A DNA stretch of 64,000 nt. Source: a phage. The stretch lies in NCBI GenBank assembly GCA_027337125.1, contig GCA_027337125.1_3057.1; one strand, written 5' to 3'. Made by a program: the position numbers and the translations under genes. The notes beneath the pieces were generated by a model. The model did no database searches and was not told the DNA's origin. It was given only the letters and a program-made list of their open reading frames with translations. Shown one piece after another: positions 5,471-14,490 of the stretch (within the stretch, counting starts at the first letter, position 1; each line of letters begins with the position of its first letter).

Positions 5471-5474
5471 GTTA

Positions 5475-5500
5475 AGGACTCCTTCGGGAGTCCTTTTTTA
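5475..5500 (+). terminator. rho-independent terminator (UUCG tetraloop hairpin + T tract)
   Basis: AGGACTCC-TTCG-GGAGTCCT followed by TTTTTTATTTT. Confidence 0.7.
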
Positions 5501-5580: not shown

Positions 5581-5904
5581 ATGAAAACGATTAATCTGAA
5601 CGCTACAGTTAAAACTAAATGCTTCAATGGTAAATATGATGAAACTATGTGGTTCTTAATGGCAGTTGAAGGTGATATTGTTGAAGTAGAAACAACAGAA
5701 GGTATGGGAACAGATTTCACCTTTACAATTCAAGTTCATAATTTCTTTACTGGTTGGATTTATGAATTGAATACAGTAATCGTTGGAAAAATTGAACAAA
5801 ATGAATTAGGTGAATGGTATTATGTTACAGCTCGCCAACGTGCCGAACGCTTAATTGAGAAGATGAAAAAGTTGGTAAACTTGACATGCAACATTGGAAA
5901 GTAG
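5581..5904 (+). CDS. hypothetical protein (107 aa)
   Basis: ORF with AAGGAG RBS (caaAGGAGaataaaATG). Confidence 0.55.
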   Translation: MKTINLNATVKTKCFNGKYDETMWFLMAVEGDIVEVETTEGMGTDFTFTIQVHNFFTGWIYELNTVIVGKIEQNELGEWYYVTARQRAERLIEKMKKLVNLTCNIGK

Positions 5905-5914
5905 TAAAATAATT

Positions 5915-5980: not shown

Positions 5981-6346
5981 ATGAACTACATCAACTTTGA
6001 ACGTAAATATGTTTCTAATGGTATTGCAGGTTCTATTGATACTATCTGCCTTTGGAAACATCAAAATGGATCAGTATGCGAAATTGAACAGTATATGACT
6101 CCTAACTACGTTTATATGCGATTTGAAAATGGCATCACGGTTTCAATCACGAAAGAAGGTTCTTCTTTTAAAATCGCATTAGATGATGATTTCCGTCAAC
6201 GTGATTTAGGTACTCATCCTTGTTGGAATGGCGTCAATCGCAAACTTCTGGTTAAAACTTGGATTCGTCATATTCTGAGTAACAGAGCTAAACCTGAGCA
6301 TCTTGAAGCAATCTTTGATGTAGTTCTTAATGAATTTGATATTTAA
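5981..6346 (+). CDS. hypothetical protein (121 aa)
   Basis: ORF with GGAG RBS; followed by GGGGC-TTCG-GCCCC hairpin. Confidence 0.55.
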   Translation: MNYINFERKYVSNGIAGSIDTICLWKHQNGSVCEIEQYMTPNYVYMRFENGITVSITKEGSSFKIALDDDFRQRDLGTHPCWNGVNRKLLVKTWIRHILSNRAKPEHLEAIFDVVLNEFDI

Positions 6347-6674: not shown

Positions 6675-6871
6675 TGAAATTCTTTTTGGGTCAAACTGTT
6701 GAATTAAAGGGAGTCGGTATACCTGGATTAATTTCTAAGGTTCTACCTCCATTTAAATGGAGTGGTATTCAAATAAAAGAGGCTTATATTGTTTCCTGGG
6801 TAGATGGAAATGAAGACCTTCGTATGGGTGATGAATTATCTCCTATCTATGGATTAAAGGAATTAGTATGA
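6674..6871 (+). CDS. hypothetical protein (65 aa)
   Basis: ORF, overlapping stop/start with neighbours. Confidence 0.45.
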   Translation: MKFFLGQTVELKGVGIPGLISKVLPPFKWSGIQIKEAYIVSWVDGNEDLRMGDELSPIYGLKELV

Positions 6872-7074
6872 ATATAATTAATAAGATTTTTGGAATTCAG
6901 TACATTAAGGTCACATATAAAGTAACGTATAAAGGTCCGTATACCGATGAACATGAAGAACCACAAGTTAAGTCTATTATATTAGAAAAGGACCCTAACT
7001 GGCCAGTTGAATTTCGTCTTCCTTGCTATGGTCATTGGGCTGATGTTGAAATTATAAGTATTGAAAATGTCTGA
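6868..7074 (+). CDS. hypothetical protein (68 aa)
   Basis: ORF, ATGA overlap with upstream ORF. Confidence 0.45.
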   Translation: MNIINKIFGIQYIKVTYKVTYKGPYTDEHEEPQVKSIILEKDPNWPVEFRLPCYGHWADVEIISIENV

Positions 7075-7525
7075 GCTAGAAATAAGAAGCAATTTTAGAT
7101 GGCCATCATGTGCATTAAGCAATTTCGCCCAATGGCCTTTTGTTATGGATGGTATCCAATTTGGAGGTCTCGAAGGATTCCTCCAAGGATGTAAGGTGAA
7201 AAATGTTGAACAGCAAAGACGTATATTTGGGATGTCTGGGCTTGCCGCCCAACAAGCTGGAATGTCTTATGCTAGAGCTCAGGACCGTGGCACGTTGTTC
7301 TGGCTTGGAACACCATTTTCAAGATACTCTCCAGCGTGGAAAGAATTATACACAAATGCATATTTTGAAGCAGCGATCCAAAACAGGGGTTTTCGTGATG
7401 CATTACAAGCCTCGAAAGGAAAAGTTTTGAAGCACAGCATGGCTAGTGGTCTAACAAAAGATGATACAATACTAACCGAAGCTGAATTTATTGATGTGTT
7501 AAACCTATTAAGAGACTCTCTATGA
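7061..7525 (+). CDS. NADAR (YbiA-like, DUF1768) domain protein
   Basis: 154 aa; N-terminal ...LSNFAQWPF...GGLEGFLQ... resembles YbiA/NADAR FSNF-AAWP signature; position corresponds to T4 30.3-type gene. Confidence 0.7.
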   Translation: MKMSELEIRSNFRWPSCALSNFAQWPFVMDGIQFGGLEGFLQGCKVKNVEQQRRIFGMSGLAAQQAGMSYARAQDRGTLFWLGTPFSRYSPAWKELYTNAYFEAAIQNRGFRDALQASKGKVLKHSMASGLTKDDTILTEAEFIDVLNLLRDSL

Positions 7526-8367
7526 AGCCAACTATTTTGACTGATATTGATGGAGTATGTTTAAGCTGGCAATCAGGCCTTCCTTATTTTGCTCAGAAAT
7601 ATAATCTTCCATTAGAACATATTTTAAAAATGATCCAAGATGAGAAATTTATTTCTCCAGGTAAACTCTTTAATTGTGACGAAGAACTTGGCGTCAAGTT
7701 AATTGAAAAATACAATCGTTCAGATTTTATTCGTTACTTGTCTCCGTATAAAGATGCCCTGTGTGTAATTAACAAATTAAAAGAAGATTATAATTTTGTA
7801 GCTGTTACAGCATTGGGTGATTCTATTGATGCTCTATTAAATCGTCAATTTAATTTGAATGCTCTTTTTCCTGGTGCCTTTTCAGAAGTAATGATGTGTG
7901 GTCATGATTCTTCAAAAGAAGAGTTGTTCAAAAAGGCAAAAGAGAAATATAACGTAATTTGTTATATTGACGATCTCGCTCATCACTGCGATCATGCGAG
8001 TGAAATATTAAATGTTCCTGTTTATTGGATGGCTCGAGGAGAACGTGACAATATTCCAAAAACTGCTCAGCGAGTTTATACATGGAATGATGTAGAAAAT
8101 AAGCTTTTTTCGCCGAAGGAAAATAAAGAAAGTTTTGATAGTGAAAAAGCTATAAAAGATTTAATTGAGAAGATGGTTAAAAACGATTCTTTTCCTTGGA
8201 ACACTACCTGGAGAACGCCTGGATTAAATCCTTATAATCCATATTATCTATATCATCCATATCAGACACATCCGTTTCAGACATGGAACTATATTAAACC
8301 TGGTGGCATAGAGTATTTGTATAATAGACCTACTAGTGGTGATAATATTTTTCAAGGAGCATTCTAA
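7522..8367 (+). CDS. HAD-superfamily-like hydrolase with aromatic/Pro-rich C-terminal tail
   Basis: 281 aa; N-terminal ILTDIDGV (HAD motif I DxDG); C-terminus NPYNPYYLYHPYQTHPFQTWNY low-complexity. Confidence 0.55.
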   Translation: MKPTILTDIDGVCLSWQSGLPYFAQKYNLPLEHILKMIQDEKFISPGKLFNCDEELGVKLIEKYNRSDFIRYLSPYKDALCVINKLKEDYNFVAVTALGDSIDALLNRQFNLNALFPGAFSEVMMCGHDSSKEELFKKAKEKYNVICYIDDLAHHCDHASEILNVPVYWMARGERDNIPKTAQRVYTWNDVENKLFSPKENKESFDSEKAIKDLIEKMVKNDSFPWNTTWRTPGLNPYNPYYLYHPYQTHPFQTWNYIKPGGIEYLYNRPTSGDNIFQGAF

Positions 8368-8636
8368 TGTTTGTTGTTCATACTATTTATGAAAATGAAG
8401 GTAATACTACACGTGATTACGGTCACGTAAATCAATTTTTTAGATGCAATCCGGAATTCCGTGCTCAAAAAGACGAACGAATTTTTAAAAAATGTGTAGA
8501 ACAAGGTTTCATTTACGTCAAGCACTGGATGCAAGGAAATAAAGTTAGAACTACATATCATAAGTCTTTGCCTGAGCTTAATGATGAATTGATTTATAAT
8601 AGAAATGTAAATCAAACTTTGAAGGATGAACAATGA
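8367..8636 (+). CDS. hypothetical protein (89 aa)
   Basis: ORF immediately upstream of and overlapping ligase start. Confidence 0.5.
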   Translation: MFVVHTIYENEGNTTRDYGHVNQFFRCNPEFRAQKDERIFKKCVEQGFIYVKHWMQGNKVRTTYHKSLPELNDELIYNRNVNQTLKDEQ

Positions 8637-10093
8637 TTCTTAAAATTCTGAATGAAATAGCATCTATTGGATCAACTAAGCAGAAGCAAGCAATTCTTGA
8701 AAAGAATAAAGATAATGAATTGCTTAAACGAGTATATCGTCTGACTTATTCTCGTGGGTTACAGTATTATATCAAGAAATGGCCTAAGCCTGGTATTGCT
8801 ACCCAGAGTTTTGGAATGCTGACCATTACCGATATGCTTGACTTTATTGAATTTACGTTAGCTACTCGGAAATTAACTGGCAATGCAGCAATTGAGGAAT
8901 TAACTGGATATATCACCGATGGTAAAAAGGATGATGTTGAAGTTTTGCGTCGAGTTATGATGCGAGACCTTGAATGCGGTGCTTCAGTATCTATTGCAAA
9001 CAAAGTTTGGCCGGGTTTAATTCCTGAACAACCTCAAATGCTGGCAAGTTCTTATGATGAAAAAGGCATTAGTAAGAATATCAAGTTTCCAGCTTTTGCG
9101 CAGTTAAAAGCTGATGGAGCTCGGTGTTTTGCTGAAGTCCGAGGTGATGAATTAGATGATGTTCGTCTTTTATCGCGAGCTGGCAATGAATACCTAGGAT
9201 TAGATCTTCTTAAGGAAGAGTTAATCAAAATGACTGCTGAAGCCCGCCAGATTCATCCAGAAGGCGTGTTAATCGATGGCGAATTGGTATACCATGAGCA
9301 AGTTGAAAAAGAACCAGAAGGCCTAGATTTTCTTTTTGATGCTCCTGAAAATAGTAAAGCTAAAGAGTTTGCCGAAGTAGCTGAATCTCGTACTGCTTCT
9401 AATGGAATCGCCAATAAATCTTTAAAGGGAACTATTTCAGAAAAAGAAGCCAAATGCATGAAGTTTCAGGTCTGGGATTATGTTCCGTTGGTAGAAATAT
9501 ACGGTCTTCCGGCGTTTCGTTTAAAATATGATGTACGTTTTTCTAAACTAGAACAAATGACATCAGGATATGATAAAGTAATTTTAATTGAAAACCAAGT
9601 AGTAAATAACCTAGATGAAGCTAAGGTAATTTATAAAAAATATATTGACCAAGGTCTTGAAGGTATTATTCTCAAAAATACCGATGGATTGTGGGAAAAT
9701 GCTCGTTCAAAAAATCTTTATAAATTTAAAGAAGTAATTGATGTTGATTTAAAAATTGTAGGAATTTATCCTCACCGTAAAGACCCTACTAAAGCAGGTG
9801 GATTTATTCTTGAATCAGAGTGTGGAAAAATTAAGGTAAATGCCGGTTCAGGCTTAAAAGATAAAGCCGGCGTAAAATCGCATGAACTTGACCGTACTCG
9901 CATTATGGAAAACCAAAATTATTATATTGGAAAAATTCTAGAGTGCGAATGCAATGGTTGGTTAAAATCTGATGGCCGCACTGATTACGTTAAATTATTT
10001 CTTCCGATTGCGATTCGTTTACGTGAAGATAAAACTAAAGCTAATACATTCGAGGATGTATTTGGTGATTTTCATGAGGTAACTGGTCTATGA
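8633..10093 (+). CDS. 30: ATP-dependent DNA ligase
   Basis: 486 aa; adenylation motif KADGAR (KxDG); sequence and length match T4 gp30 as recalled. Confidence 0.95.
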   Translation: MILKILNEIASIGSTKQKQAILEKNKDNELLKRVYRLTYSRGLQYYIKKWPKPGIATQSFGMLTITDMLDFIEFTLATRKLTGNAAIEELTGYITDGKKDDVEVLRRVMMRDLECGASVSIANKVWPGLIPEQPQMLASSYDEKGISKNIKFPAFAQLKADGARCFAEVRGDELDDVRLLSRAGNEYLGLDLLKEELIKMTAEARQIHPEGVLIDGELVYHEQVEKEPEGLDFLFDAPENSKAKEFAEVAESRTASNGIANKSLKGTISEKEAKCMKFQVWDYVPLVEIYGLPAFRLKYDVRFSKLEQMTSGYDKVILIENQVVNNLDEAKVIYKKYIDQGLEGIILKNTDGLWENARSKNLYKFKEVIDVDLKIVGIYPHRKDPTKAGGFILESECGKIKVNAGSGLKDKAGVKSHELDRTRIMENQNYYIGKILECECNGWLKSDGRTDYVKLFLPIAIRLREDKTKANTFEDVFGDFHEVTGL

Positions 10094-10275: not shown

Positions 10276-10282
10276 ATTACTA

Positions 10283-10305
10283 AAGGCCTTTGGGCCTTTA
10301 ATTTT
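10283..10305 (+). terminator. rho-independent terminator
   Basis: AAGGCC-TTTG-GGCCTT hairpin followed by TAATTTT. Confidence 0.55.
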
Positions 10306-10312: not shown

Positions 10313-10335
10313 GAATAAACACTAGAGAGGCTATG

Positions 10336-12429
10336 ATGGAACTTATTACAGAATTATTTGACGAAGATACTACTCTTCCGATTACAAACTTAAATCCAAA
10401 GAAGAAAATACCGCAAATTTTTTCAGTTCATGTTGATGATGCAATTGAACAACCAGGCTTTCGTTTATGTACCTATACATCTGGAGGTGATACTAATCGC
10501 GATTTAAAAATGGGCGATAAAATGATGCATATTGTTCCTTTTACATTAACTGCTAAAGGTTCAATTGCTAAATTAAAAGGTCTCGGTCCAAGCCCAATTA
10601 ATTATATCAATTCAGTTTTTACTGTTGCAATGCAGACGATGCGTCAGTATAAAATTGATGCCTGTATGCTTCGTATTCTTAAGTCTAAAACTGCTGGTCA
10701 AGCTCGACAAATTCAAGTTATTGCTGATAGACTTATCCGTAGTCGTTCAGGTGGCAGATACGTCCTTCTTAAGGAACTCTGGGATTATGATAAAAAGTAT
10801 GCATATATTCTCATACATCGCAAAAATGTATCACTAGAAGACATTCCAGGAGTTCCGGAAATTAGTACCGAGCTCTTTACTAAAGTTGAATCGAAAGTCG
10901 GCGATGTTTATATCAATAAAGATACTGGAGCTCAAGTAACTAAAAATGAAGCAATTGCAGCATCTATTGCGCAAGAAAATGATAAACGTTCTGACCAAGC
11001 TGTTATTGTTAAAGTTAAAATTTCCCGTAGAGCAATTGCGCAAAGTCAGTCATTAGAATCTTCTAGATTTGAAAGCGAATTATTCCAGAAGTATGAATCT
11101 ACCGCAGCCAATTTTAATAAACCTGCTACAGCTCCTTTAATTCCTGAAGCAGAAGAAATGAAACTTGGAATTAATTCATTAGCTTCTAAAACTAAGGCAG
11201 CAAAAATCATTGCCGAAGGAACCGCAGATGAACTTCACTATGACTATAAATTCTTTTCAAAAAGTGAGGTTAATGAAGTTTCTGAAAAAATTAAAGATGT
11301 AATTCTTAATGCGATTAAAAATGAACCAACTACTTCAATAAAATGTTTAGAGAAATACGCAGCAGCTGTTAATCAGTTATTTGAAGAATATAAAGATAAT
11401 TGGCTTGATAAACATAATAAAACCCGTAAAGGACAGCCAGATGAAGTCTGGGAAGAAATAACTAAAAATTCCTGGAACGCAGCAAAAACTAAATTCCTCA
11501 AACGAATGATTTATAGTTTTTCTGGAATTGGTGCAGGTCCAATGATTGATATTACTATTGCCCGTGATGGTTCTAAATATACTCCATCGCAAAAGCGCGG
11601 CATTAGAGAGTATTGTGGATCAGGATATACTGACATCAATAATCTTCTTTTAGGCCGCTACAATCCAGAACGATATGATGTAATGAGTGAAAAAGAAATT
11701 GAATCTGCTATAAATAACTTAGATTCAGCTTTTGAAAATGGTGATCGTATACCAGAAGGCATTACAGTTTATCGTGCTCAAAGCATGACTGCTCCTATAT
11801 ACGAAGCACTAGTTAAAAATAAAGTGTTCTATTTCAGAAATTTTGTATCTACTTCTTTAACTCCTATCATTTTTGGACGTTTTGGAATTACACATGCTGG
11901 TATTGGTCTTTTAGAACCAGAAGCTCGTAATGAATTAACAGTTGATAAAAATGAAGAAGGAATAACTATTAATCCAAGCGAAATAAGAGCGTATAAAGAA
12001 AATCCTGAATACGTTAAAGTTCAAATAGGATGGGCAATTGATGGAGCTCATAAAGTTAATGTTGTATATCCAGGAAGTCTCGGAATAGCAACAGAAGCTG
12101 AAGTTATTCTACCACGCGGATTGATGGTCAAAGTTAATAAAATAACTGACGCTTCTAATAATGACGGAACAACATCTAATAATACAAAACTCATTCAAGC
12201 TGAAGTTATGACTACGGAAGAACTCACCGAATCAGTAATTTATGACGGTGACCGTCTAATGGAAACTGGTGAAGTAGTTGCAATGACAGGTGATATTGAA
12301 ATAGAAGACAGAGTTGACTTTGCATCATTTGTTTCATCAAATGTTAAACAGAAAGTAGAATCATCTCTTGGAATTATTGCGTCTTGCATAGATATTACAA
12401 ACATGCCTTACAAGTTCGTTCAAGGATAA
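10336..12429 (+). CDS. alt: Alt ADP-ribosyltransferase (capsid-packaged)
   Basis: About 697 aa; N-terminus MELITELFDE...; C-terminal ART motifs YRAQ, FVSTSL (STS), EAEVIL (ExE); GAGAGG RBS 5 nt upstream of second ATG. Confidence 0.9.
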   Translation: MELITELFDEDTTLPITNLNPKKKIPQIFSVHVDDAIEQPGFRLCTYTSGGDTNRDLKMGDKMMHIVPFTLTAKGSIAKLKGLGPSPINYINSVFTVAMQTMRQYKIDACMLRILKSKTAGQARQIQVIADRLIRSRSGGRYVLLKELWDYDKKYAYILIHRKNVSLEDIPGVPEISTELFTKVESKVGDVYINKDTGAQVTKNEAIAASIAQENDKRSDQAVIVKVKISRRAIAQSQSLESSRFESELFQKYESTAANFNKPATAPLIPEAEEMKLGINSLASKTKAAKIIAEGTADELHYDYKFFSKSEVNEVSEKIKDVILNAIKNEPTTSIKCLEKYAAAVNQLFEEYKDNWLDKHNKTRKGQPDEVWEEITKNSWNAAKTKFLKRMIYSFSGIGAGPMIDITIARDGSKYTPSQKRGIREYCGSGYTDINNLLLGRYNPERYDVMSEKEIESAINNLDSAFENGDRIPEGITVYRAQSMTAPIYEALVKNKVFYFRNFVSTSLTPIIFGRFGITHAGIGLLEPEARNELTVDKNEEGITINPSEIRAYKENPEYVKVQIGWAIDGAHKVNVVYPGSLGIATEAEVILPRGLMVKVNKITDASNNDGTTSNNTKLIQAEVMTTEELTESVIYDGDRLMETGEVVAMTGDIEIEDRVDFASFVSSNVKQKVESSLGIIASCIDITNMPYKFVQG

Positions 12430-12432
12430 ATC

Positions 12433-14490
12433 ATGGAACTTATTACAGAATTATTTGACGGCGCTTCGGCGCCGGTTGTTAACTTAAATCCTAAGCATAA
12501 AATACCTCAAATTTTTGCTATTCAAGCAGGCGAAGAAAGCGTGCTTCCTGGATTTAGATTTTGTACATACACCTCTGGCGGTGATACAAATAAAAACGTT
12601 AAGCCAGGCGATAAAATGATGCATATCGTAATGATAGGTGTCAATGAAAAGCTATCATTAGTTAAACTTAAAAACTTGGGTGGAAATCCAATTGGTGTTA
12701 TTAATGCGGTTTTTGATACTGCTCTTCAAACAATGAAACAGTATAAAATTGACGCATGCCTATTCCGCGTACTAAAGAGTAAAACAAACGGTGCAGCTCG
12801 TCAAATGCAAGTTATTGCTGACCGTTTAGTACGTACTAAAGGAGCAGGTCGATATGTTCTTTTAAAGGAAATCTGGGACTATGATAAGAAATATGCATAT
12901 ATTATGGTTTACCGTAAAAATGCCAATTTAGAAGACATTCCAGGTGTACCTCCTATTTCAACTGAGTTATTCACAAAAGTTGAATCAAAGGTTGGTGATG
13001 TTTATGTAGACGTTAAAACAGGTAATGCTGTTCCTAAAGCTGTTGCTGTTGCCGCTTCTATTGCTCTAGAAAATGATAAGCGCACGGATCAAGCTGTTAT
13101 TCAGAAAACTAAAATTAGTCGTCGATTAGCAGCACAAGCTCAATATTCTACTGTCGATGCTTCACTTCAGGGTGATAGCTTCGCCGCTAAGAAATATCAA
13201 GAGTTTGAATCTAAAGTTCCAGTATATAAAGCAGAAGGACCAATGAACTCTGGTGTTATTCAGATTGGTTCAAATTTCAGCAAAGGAGCTATAGGTGGTA
13301 TGAGGAGTGCTTCTCGTTTTAAATCTAATGATTATGAACTAGAAAGCTTCCGAAATCATATTGCATTAGCTCATGCACGTTTACGTGATCCATCTATCAA
13401 GTTACAGAGCGATATATCATATCAAGGTTCTCAAGAATATTTAAAGAATAAAGAATTTTTTGATTATAAAACTGATAAAATTTTAAGTGATCTTGCTGAC
13501 ATTAATATTTCTAATAGCTTTGATGTTATTAAGAAAATTGTCAATGATTTAGTTAAAGGTTCTAAAGCCACACCAGATGAAAAGGTAGCTATTGTTCAAT
13601 TTGTCATGAATGGCGTTTATAAATTGATTAATGAGTCTGCTTCTCAAGCGTATGAATATGCAAGTACTGAAGTAACTCCAAAAGGATTAACTCAGGCTGA
13701 GTCTGATGTAATTGAAGATTATTGTGCAGATTCATATGTTGAAATGAACTCGTTCCTTTTAGGTAAACCGGATTCTACCCGTGAAGAATATATGGAACGA
13801 GCTATTAAACACATCGAGACAATGGATTCTGCCTTTGCCAAAGGATCAGTTCTTCCTCCAGGAACTACGCTTTACCGTGGACAAGAAGTTACATTTAAAA
13901 CTTTACGTCATAATATTGAAAATAAAATGTTCTACTTCAAGAACTTCGTATCCACATCGCTTAAACCAAATATCTTCGGTGAGTATGGTAAAAACTATAT
14001 GGCTCTAGATGATTCCGGCGCAGTATTTTCTGGTGAAGGAGAAGGTTCAGTTGACGCAGAAGATTTGATGCATATGGGCAGTCACTCTGCTTATGCGAAT
14101 GAAGATGCTGAAACTAGCGTGGGTATGGTAATTAAAGGAGCTGAGCGAATCAAAGTTATCGTTCCAGGACATTTATCAGGATTTCCATCAGAAGCTGAAG
14201 TTATTTTACCGCGTGGAATTTTGCTGAAGATTAATAAAGTGAGTACGTACATGATGAAAGAAACTGCTTATAATAAGTATCTAATCGAAGGCACAATCGT
14301 TCCTCCTTCTGAACAATTAGAAGAATCGGTATATGATGGCGACCATCTAATGGAAACTGGTGAAGTTCGTCCAATGGCTGGATTTAATCAATTCCTTGTA
14401 GAAGAATCAAAAGAAGAGGAAAACGAAGTTTCTCAAATCTTGGCTTCTTTGGTTAACATCAACGGAATGTCTAAAAAGTTCAAAATGTAG
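12433..14490 (+). CDS. Alt-like ADP-ribosyltransferase paralog
   Basis: 685 aa; first ~230 aa clearly homologous to Alt (MELITELFD..., QYKIDAC..., GRYVLLKE.WDYDKKYAYI...); divergent C-terminal ART domain retaining YRGQ, FVSTSL, EAEVILPRG. Confidence 0.85.
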   Translation: MELITELFDGASAPVVNLNPKHKIPQIFAIQAGEESVLPGFRFCTYTSGGDTNKNVKPGDKMMHIVMIGVNEKLSLVKLKNLGGNPIGVINAVFDTALQTMKQYKIDACLFRVLKSKTNGAARQMQVIADRLVRTKGAGRYVLLKEIWDYDKKYAYIMVYRKNANLEDIPGVPPISTELFTKVESKVGDVYVDVKTGNAVPKAVAVAASIALENDKRTDQAVIQKTKISRRLAAQAQYSTVDASLQGDSFAAKKYQEFESKVPVYKAEGPMNSGVIQIGSNFSKGAIGGMRSASRFKSNDYELESFRNHIALAHARLRDPSIKLQSDISYQGSQEYLKNKEFFDYKTDKILSDLADINISNSFDVIKKIVNDLVKGSKATPDEKVAIVQFVMNGVYKLINESASQAYEYASTEVTPKGLTQAESDVIEDYCADSYVEMNSFLLGKPDSTREEYMERAIKHIETMDSAFAKGSVLPPGTTLYRGQEVTFKTLRHNIENKMFYFKNFVSTSLKPNIFGEYGKNYMALDDSGAVFSGEGEGSVDAEDLMHMGSHSAYANEDAETSVGMVIKGAERIKVIVPGHLSGFPSEAEVILPRGILLKINKVSTYMMKETAYNKYLIEGTIVPPSEQLEESVYDGDHLMETGEVRPMAGFNQFLVEESKEEENEVSQILASLVNINGMSKKFKM

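Follow-up and report, generated by a model that had tools for sequence, protein, structure and literature searches.

Resistance of the phages T2 and T4 to DarTG1 has been mapped to gene 30.3, which was renamed adfN (Johannesman et al., Nat Commun 2025, PMC11825919). Without adfN, T4 or T2 forms no plaques on DarTG1 cells, and ectopic AdfN rescues RB69, a phage that is naturally DarTG1-sensitive through a 1-nt insertion that cuts 15 residues off its own AdfN (PMC11825919). In that study AdfN proved both necessary and sufficient against DarTG1. Purified AdfN takes ADP-ribose off DarT1-modified DNA in vitro, which the E36A variant does not do. Rescue is weakened by E36A, by K43A and by truncation, and DarTG2 is not countered by AdfN (PMC11825919). 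In vitro, T4 gp30.3 hydrolyses guanine-ADPr and leaves thymine-ADPr unhydrolysed (Toxins 2024, PMC11125620). The anti-DarTG1 NADAR role of gp30.3 is therefore already known from the genetics and biochemistry of 2024-2025.

The phenotype of the gene is narrow. adfN is non-essential on K-12, and its deletion phenotype is confined to DarTG1 hosts (PMC11825919; bioRxiv 10.1101/2025.11.20.689424). When T4 was screened with transposons, insertions in 30.3 were lost specifically on the DarTG1 host (HIDEN-SEQ preprint, bioRxiv 10.1101/2025.11.20.689424). T4 gp30.3 does not rescue uninfected E. coli from DarT1 toxicity (PMC11125620), and T4 AdfN rescues unrelated phages weakly. By these two observations, the mechanism in vivo has a T-even-specific component. 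The proteins AdfN-Bas32 and AdfN-Bas60 (from T5-like and Vequintavirinae phages) are likewise phage orphan NADARs with anti-DarTG1 activity, but by the published description they were acquired independently from other NADAR branches and are active without T-even infection.

The locus described here lies in a phage DNA stretch of 64,000 nucleotides (the window; assembly GCA_027337125.1). It belongs to a Tequatrovirus, a phage of the T4 type. Between positions 6000 and 9000 the window shares 99.4% identity with Enterobacteria phage vB_EcoM_IME340, and matches were found in 735 phage records. The open reading frame at 7061..7525 on the plus strand encodes 154 aa if read from the TTG at 7061. It matches the Pfam family PF08010 Phage_30_3 ("Bacteriophage protein GP30.3") with E 2e-69 and 232 bits, against a gathering cut-off of 36, over profile positions 1-138 of 138; no other Pfam family was matched.

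A first-pass annotation of this DNA had described the product as a 154 aa protein. The frame exists as described, but the start is most likely the ATG at 7067, which gives 152 aa. This follows from the T4 annotation, in which gene 30.3 is 459 nt long, encodes 152 aa and starts at the equivalent ATG; read from that codon, the window protein is identical to T4 gp30.3 at 147 of 152 residues (97%) without gaps. The published residue numbers E36 and K43 also agree only with this start. The coding sequence at 7067..7525 (plus strand, 152 aa and a stop) is adfN, T4 gene 30.3, and a member of the PF08010 gp30.3/AdfN family by its sequence.

The five substitutions that separate the window protein from T4 gp30.3 (L56M, R66M, V82T, K107R and I125M) are conservative or of a surface type, and they spare E36, K43 and H123.

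The adfN product occurs in 1,511 phage records of the collection searched, and among the 40 AdfN phage records listed the label is "hypothetical protein" almost everywhere. A PHROGs search with the product returned an unnamed family only. In IME340 the protein is annotated from an internal Met (locus L001, 9146..9526), 26 codons late, as a protein of 126 aa; the IME340 DNA is nevertheless open from the same T4-type ATG, and the shorter annotation is a start-calling artefact. Several database entries (P0004-P0006) begin at the internal Met as well, and so lose the first strand and the SNF motif. Much of the practical value of the present analysis lies in annotation, since AdfN is mostly listed as a hypothetical protein or started too late.

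Two kinds of overlapping frame were considered inside adfN and set aside. T4 annotates an internal gene 30.3' of 75 aa, which corresponds to window positions 7203..7430 on the plus strand, in the +1 frame. This frame is unlikely to be a real gene. Relatives have ACG, ATT, ATC or GTG where its ATG would stand, the proteins it would encode are 62-78% identical against 83-95% for the main frame, and 14.5% of synonymous recodings contain an open frame as long. Minus-strand frames of 43-53 aa within adfN are without support.

The link between this protein and the NADAR fold depends on how it is searched for. The first-pass annotation had proposed a NADAR protein and expected a profile search to recover that family. 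As a single query, the window protein gives no match to Pfam NADAR (PF08719) at E values up to 1, and no NADAR match in NCBIfam, in PADLOC (DarG models) or by phmmer against PDB sequences. Taken naively, this outcome would have counted against the proposal. The expectation held once the family, rather than the single protein, was used: a 66-sequence profile, together with structure, was needed to make the connection.

A profile search of 1.84 billion representatives yielded 1,456 relatives. From these an alignment of 66 sequences (A3), 30-87% identical to the window protein, was made. Its profile, searched against PDB sequences with hmmsearch, found E. coli YbiA as the best match (E 0.0018). 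Profile-profile alignment with hhalign then joined the family to YbiA with 94.8% probability and E 4.9e-8 over 111 columns. PF08719 itself is reached at E <= 0.01, though always under the gathering score, by 11 of the 66 members. An AlphaFold2 model built from a 10-sequence alignment has a pLDDT of 87.3 and a pTM of 0.84.

The motifs SNFAQWPF and GLEGFLQ quoted in the first-pass annotation are present in the frame exactly as given. The first of these, the N-terminal NADAR motif S18-N19-F20-A-Q-W-P-F25, is encoded at 7118..7141 (plus strand) and aligns to FSNFAAWPI of YbiA. Throughout the 66 sequences N19 is invariant and S18 nearly so.

The catalytic residues can be placed in the same way. Glu36, encoded by GAA at 7172..7174 (plus strand), stands opposite YbiA E48 in the hhalign columns and corresponds to E43 of PnNADAR; Lys43, a conserved ADP-ribose-contacting residue encoded by AAG at 7193..7195 (plus strand), stands opposite YbiA K55. 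E36 is invariant in A3, while K43 and H123 are at least 90% conserved. The T4 mutants E36A and K43A, in which AdfN is impaired, agree with the assignments of E36 and K43. A further set of 80 viral loci was retrieved with a family pattern that itself contained E36 and K43, which makes the invariance of these two residues there circular; independent support for them therefore comes from the A3 alignment.

The third residue of interest is His123 (CAC, 7433..7435, plus strand). It closes the last beta-strand in the AlphaFold2 model, and it is present in all 79 complete copies among the 80 viral loci. Published work distinguishes NADAR families by the residue in this position: the YbiA family has Glu, the DarT-linked BC4488 (DarG1) family Asp and phage gp30.3 His (PMC11125620; PMC11543638). 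H123 would thus mark the phage gp30.3 branch as the counterpart of the last-strand Glu of YbiA. The correspondence draws on published statements and on where H123 lies in the last strand, rather than on a superposition; in the hhalign alignment H123 faces H126 of YbiA, with a gap, and misses E125 by one column.

Finally, the C-terminal helix (residues 138-152, at 7478..7522 on the plus strand; helix 140-153 of the model in the 154-aa numbering) is intact and identical to that of T4; it is the part that the frameshift removes from the inactive AdfN of RB69. Taken with the alignment of the family profile to YbiA, the sequence and the model support a NADAR-type assignment of the window protein in both fold and catalytic residues, as had been proposed.

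Similarity to YbiA, structural as well as at the profile level, raises the idea that AdfN could be a YbiA-like N-glycosidase acting on intermediates of the riboflavin pathway. This is extremely improbable. The last-strand Glu of YbiA is replaced by His, the protein falls in the gp30.3 branch of phages, riboflavin damage control is of no obvious use to a phage, and the experimental data indicate DNA as the substrate. E. coli YbiA (2b3w) and the Phytophthora NADAR (8bau), both members of PF08719, are 18-21% identical to the window protein, which falls in the separate Pfam family PF08010.

The NADARs of the DarG1 type, for instance Geobacter lovleyi NADAR (8bat) and E. coli C7 NADAR, are 14% identical to the window protein. 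They differ from it in the last strand, where the BC4488-type proteins carry Asp and the window protein His, and in genomic setting. DarG1 sits beside DarT1, whereas the window adfN is an orphan with gene 30.4 and the HAD-like gene 30.2 as neighbours and without a PADLOC match. Their roles are also distinct, as T4 AdfN is no substitute for the antitoxin DarG1 when cells are uninfected (PMC11825919; PMC11125620).

By comparison, the resemblance to T4 AdfN extends to length, to the neighbouring genes (30.4 on one side; 30.2, 30.1 and ligase on the other), to E36, K43 and H123, and to the C-terminal helix. Since the three residues and the full helix are kept, the window allele can with high confidence be expected to share the function of T4 AdfN. 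The first-pass annotation had named an anti-DarT factor as a candidate role, and this is borne out by the 97%-identical T4 gp30.3, a guanine-specific DNA ADP-ribosylglycohydrolase that defeats DarTG1 (PMC11825919; PMC11125620). The adfN product is accordingly taken, with a probability of roughly 0.93, to be a stand-alone ADP-ribosylglycohydrolase of the NADAR fold that lets the phage escape DarTG1.

In the proposed mechanism, a T4-like phage would make AdfN from its prereplicative 30.x transcription unit. Host DarT1 would attach ADP-ribose to the N2 amino group of guanine in phage DNA and so block replication. AdfN would then hydrolyse the N-glycosidic bond, releasing ADP-ribose and restoring guanine, and replication could proceed in cells that carry DarTG1. 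Catalysis is expected to proceed through Glu36 and Lys43 of the N-terminal motif, probably with His123 of the last strand, and full activity would require the C-terminal helix. An intact AdfN predicts that the window phage is resistant to DarTG1, which is relevant to the prediction of host range.

The genes around adfN are arranged as in T4, with the order 30.4, 30.3, 30.2, 30.1, 30 common to both. The ATG of adfN overlaps the stop of the gene 30.4 homologue (6868..7074, plus strand; identified from the open reading frames and the T4 gene order) by 8 nt, and its own stop overlaps the ATG of gene 30.2 in the sequence ATGA at 7522-7525. In T4 the order runs from 30.9 to 30.1, then 30, then alt, and because of this order adfN is inferred to be expressed early.

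The best promoter-like site on the plus strand is found at 5881-5910, upstream of 30.7, although promoter-like sites overall are not enriched over shuffles. Two strong hairpins of terminator type, each with a T-run behind it, are present on the plus strand: one at 5474..5495, after an rIII-like frame, and one at 10281..10300, directly behind the ligase/alt.1 region and ahead of the first Alt gene. They hint that the Alt genes may be transcribed as a unit apart from the 30.x block. Scans of the whole window for tRNA and Rfam families found nothing.

Downstream of DNA ligase (8633..10093), which lies between adfN and the Alt genes, the window carries two full-length genes for Alt ADP-ribosyltransferases on the same strand as adfN. 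The first, at 10333..12429 (plus strand), is 70% identical to T4 Alt by BLASTP and matches PF03496 (ADPrib_exo_Tox) with E 1.3e-37. The second, at 12433..14490 (plus strand), is a divergent paralogue 41% identical to T4 Alt, with a PF03496 match of E 2.4e-20. The co-linearity with Alt genes reported in the first-pass annotation is thus real, and co-expression of gene 30.3 with ADP-ribosyltransferases was already in print in 2022.

This arrangement invites a different explanation, in which AdfN erases or regulates the modifications made by the phage's own ADP-ribosyltransferases (Alt, ModA, ModB), acting on modified host proteins or RNA. adfN does share a strand and an early gene block with the two Alt paralogues, the first of which begins 2.8 kb downstream. 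The adjacency is loose, however: between 30.3 and alt, T4 has the ligase gene and alt.1. Alt-type enzymes, moreover, modify protein side chains, the target being arginine. The T4 record describes alt as a mono-ADP-ribosyltransferase that acts on host proteins, whereas all NADARs that have been tested, T4 gp30.3 included, take guanine-ADPr in DNA as substrate and leave thymine-ADPr untouched (PMC11543638; PMC11125620). Given also that deletion of adfN has a phenotype only on DarTG1 hosts and is tolerated on K-12, a role as eraser for the phage's own transferases is very unlikely. The suggestion, also made in the first-pass annotation, that the gene regulates the phage's own ADP-ribosylation finds no support beside a guanine-DNA substrate and a DarTG1-specific knockout phenotype.

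T4 differs from the window phage in having one Alt gene and remnants in place of two full-length Alt genes. The short T4 genes alt.-1 and alt.-2 (locus L003, 1066..1451) correspond to residues 1-56 and 62-116 of the second Alt, with 95% and 98% identity, respectively. By sequence they look like what is left of a second alt gene that T4 has lost; the T4 record instead calls them a partial duplication of alt.

Gene 30.2 (7522..8367, plus strand) is translationally coupled to adfN through the ATGA overlap. Its product has no annotation in Pfam or NCBIfam. The model gives residues 1-200, with good confidence, the fold of a HAD phosphatase; the four HAD motifs are all conserved, and the closest resemblance is to 5'(3')-deoxyribonucleotidases. 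The remaining 80 or so residues form a tail in which aromatic residues, Pro and Asn are abundant and which is predicted with low confidence. By its fold, gp30.2 is an NT5C-like HAD phosphatase.

Domains of this kind are also found fused to NADARs. Three unrelated clusters (P0033, P0040 and P0146) within the top 147 gp30.3-type representatives join NADAR to an NT5C-type HAD domain, and P0033 matches PF06941 with E 1.6e-16.

Before the experiments, Iyer et al. (2022) proposed that phage NADARs degrade soluble molecules derived from ADP-ribose, such as immune signals or by-products of NAD or of RNA repair, rather than DNA adducts. The nucleotide-phosphatase-like HAD product of gene 30.2 and the NADAR-NT5C fusions elsewhere would suit such small-molecule processing. 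Yet the gene is sufficiently explained by the in vitro activity on ADP-ribosylated DNA together with a phenotype specific to DarTG1, which makes a soluble substrate highly improbable for AdfN.

AdfN and gp30.2 might also act together. The substrate of gp30.2 might then be ADP-ribose set free by AdfN, or (deoxy)nucleotides that still carry ADP-ribose after DNA degradation. T4 AdfN needs a T-even factor to be fully active, and gp30.2 could conceivably be that factor, but it is unlikely that the two proteins cooperate in this way.

An obligate partnership between the two was considered and rejected. A gp30.2 HMM has no match among the 147 gp30.3-type representatives, and the likeness of gp30.2 to the NT5C part of P0033 is distant (BLASTP E 0.027; hhalign 60.8%). 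Of the 80 viral loci, 13 have a gp30.2-like gene directly downstream of the adfN homologue, and in 23 such a gene lies no more than 3 kb away. The T4 transposon screen on DarTG1 names 30.3 only (bioRxiv 10.1101/2025.11.20.689424).

NADAR domains of the gp30.3 type are found in other architectures as well. Extensions of more than 80 aa occur in about a third of the top 147 representatives, and the domain is also present in tandem copies. Further fused proteins (P0051, P0084, P0093, P0130 and P0024) carry a GDSL lipase/acylhydrolase, BspA-type leucine-rich repeats or an FtsW/RodA-like membrane domain. In P0084 the C-terminal extension is about 200 aa long and looks alpha/beta-hydrolase-like by eye.
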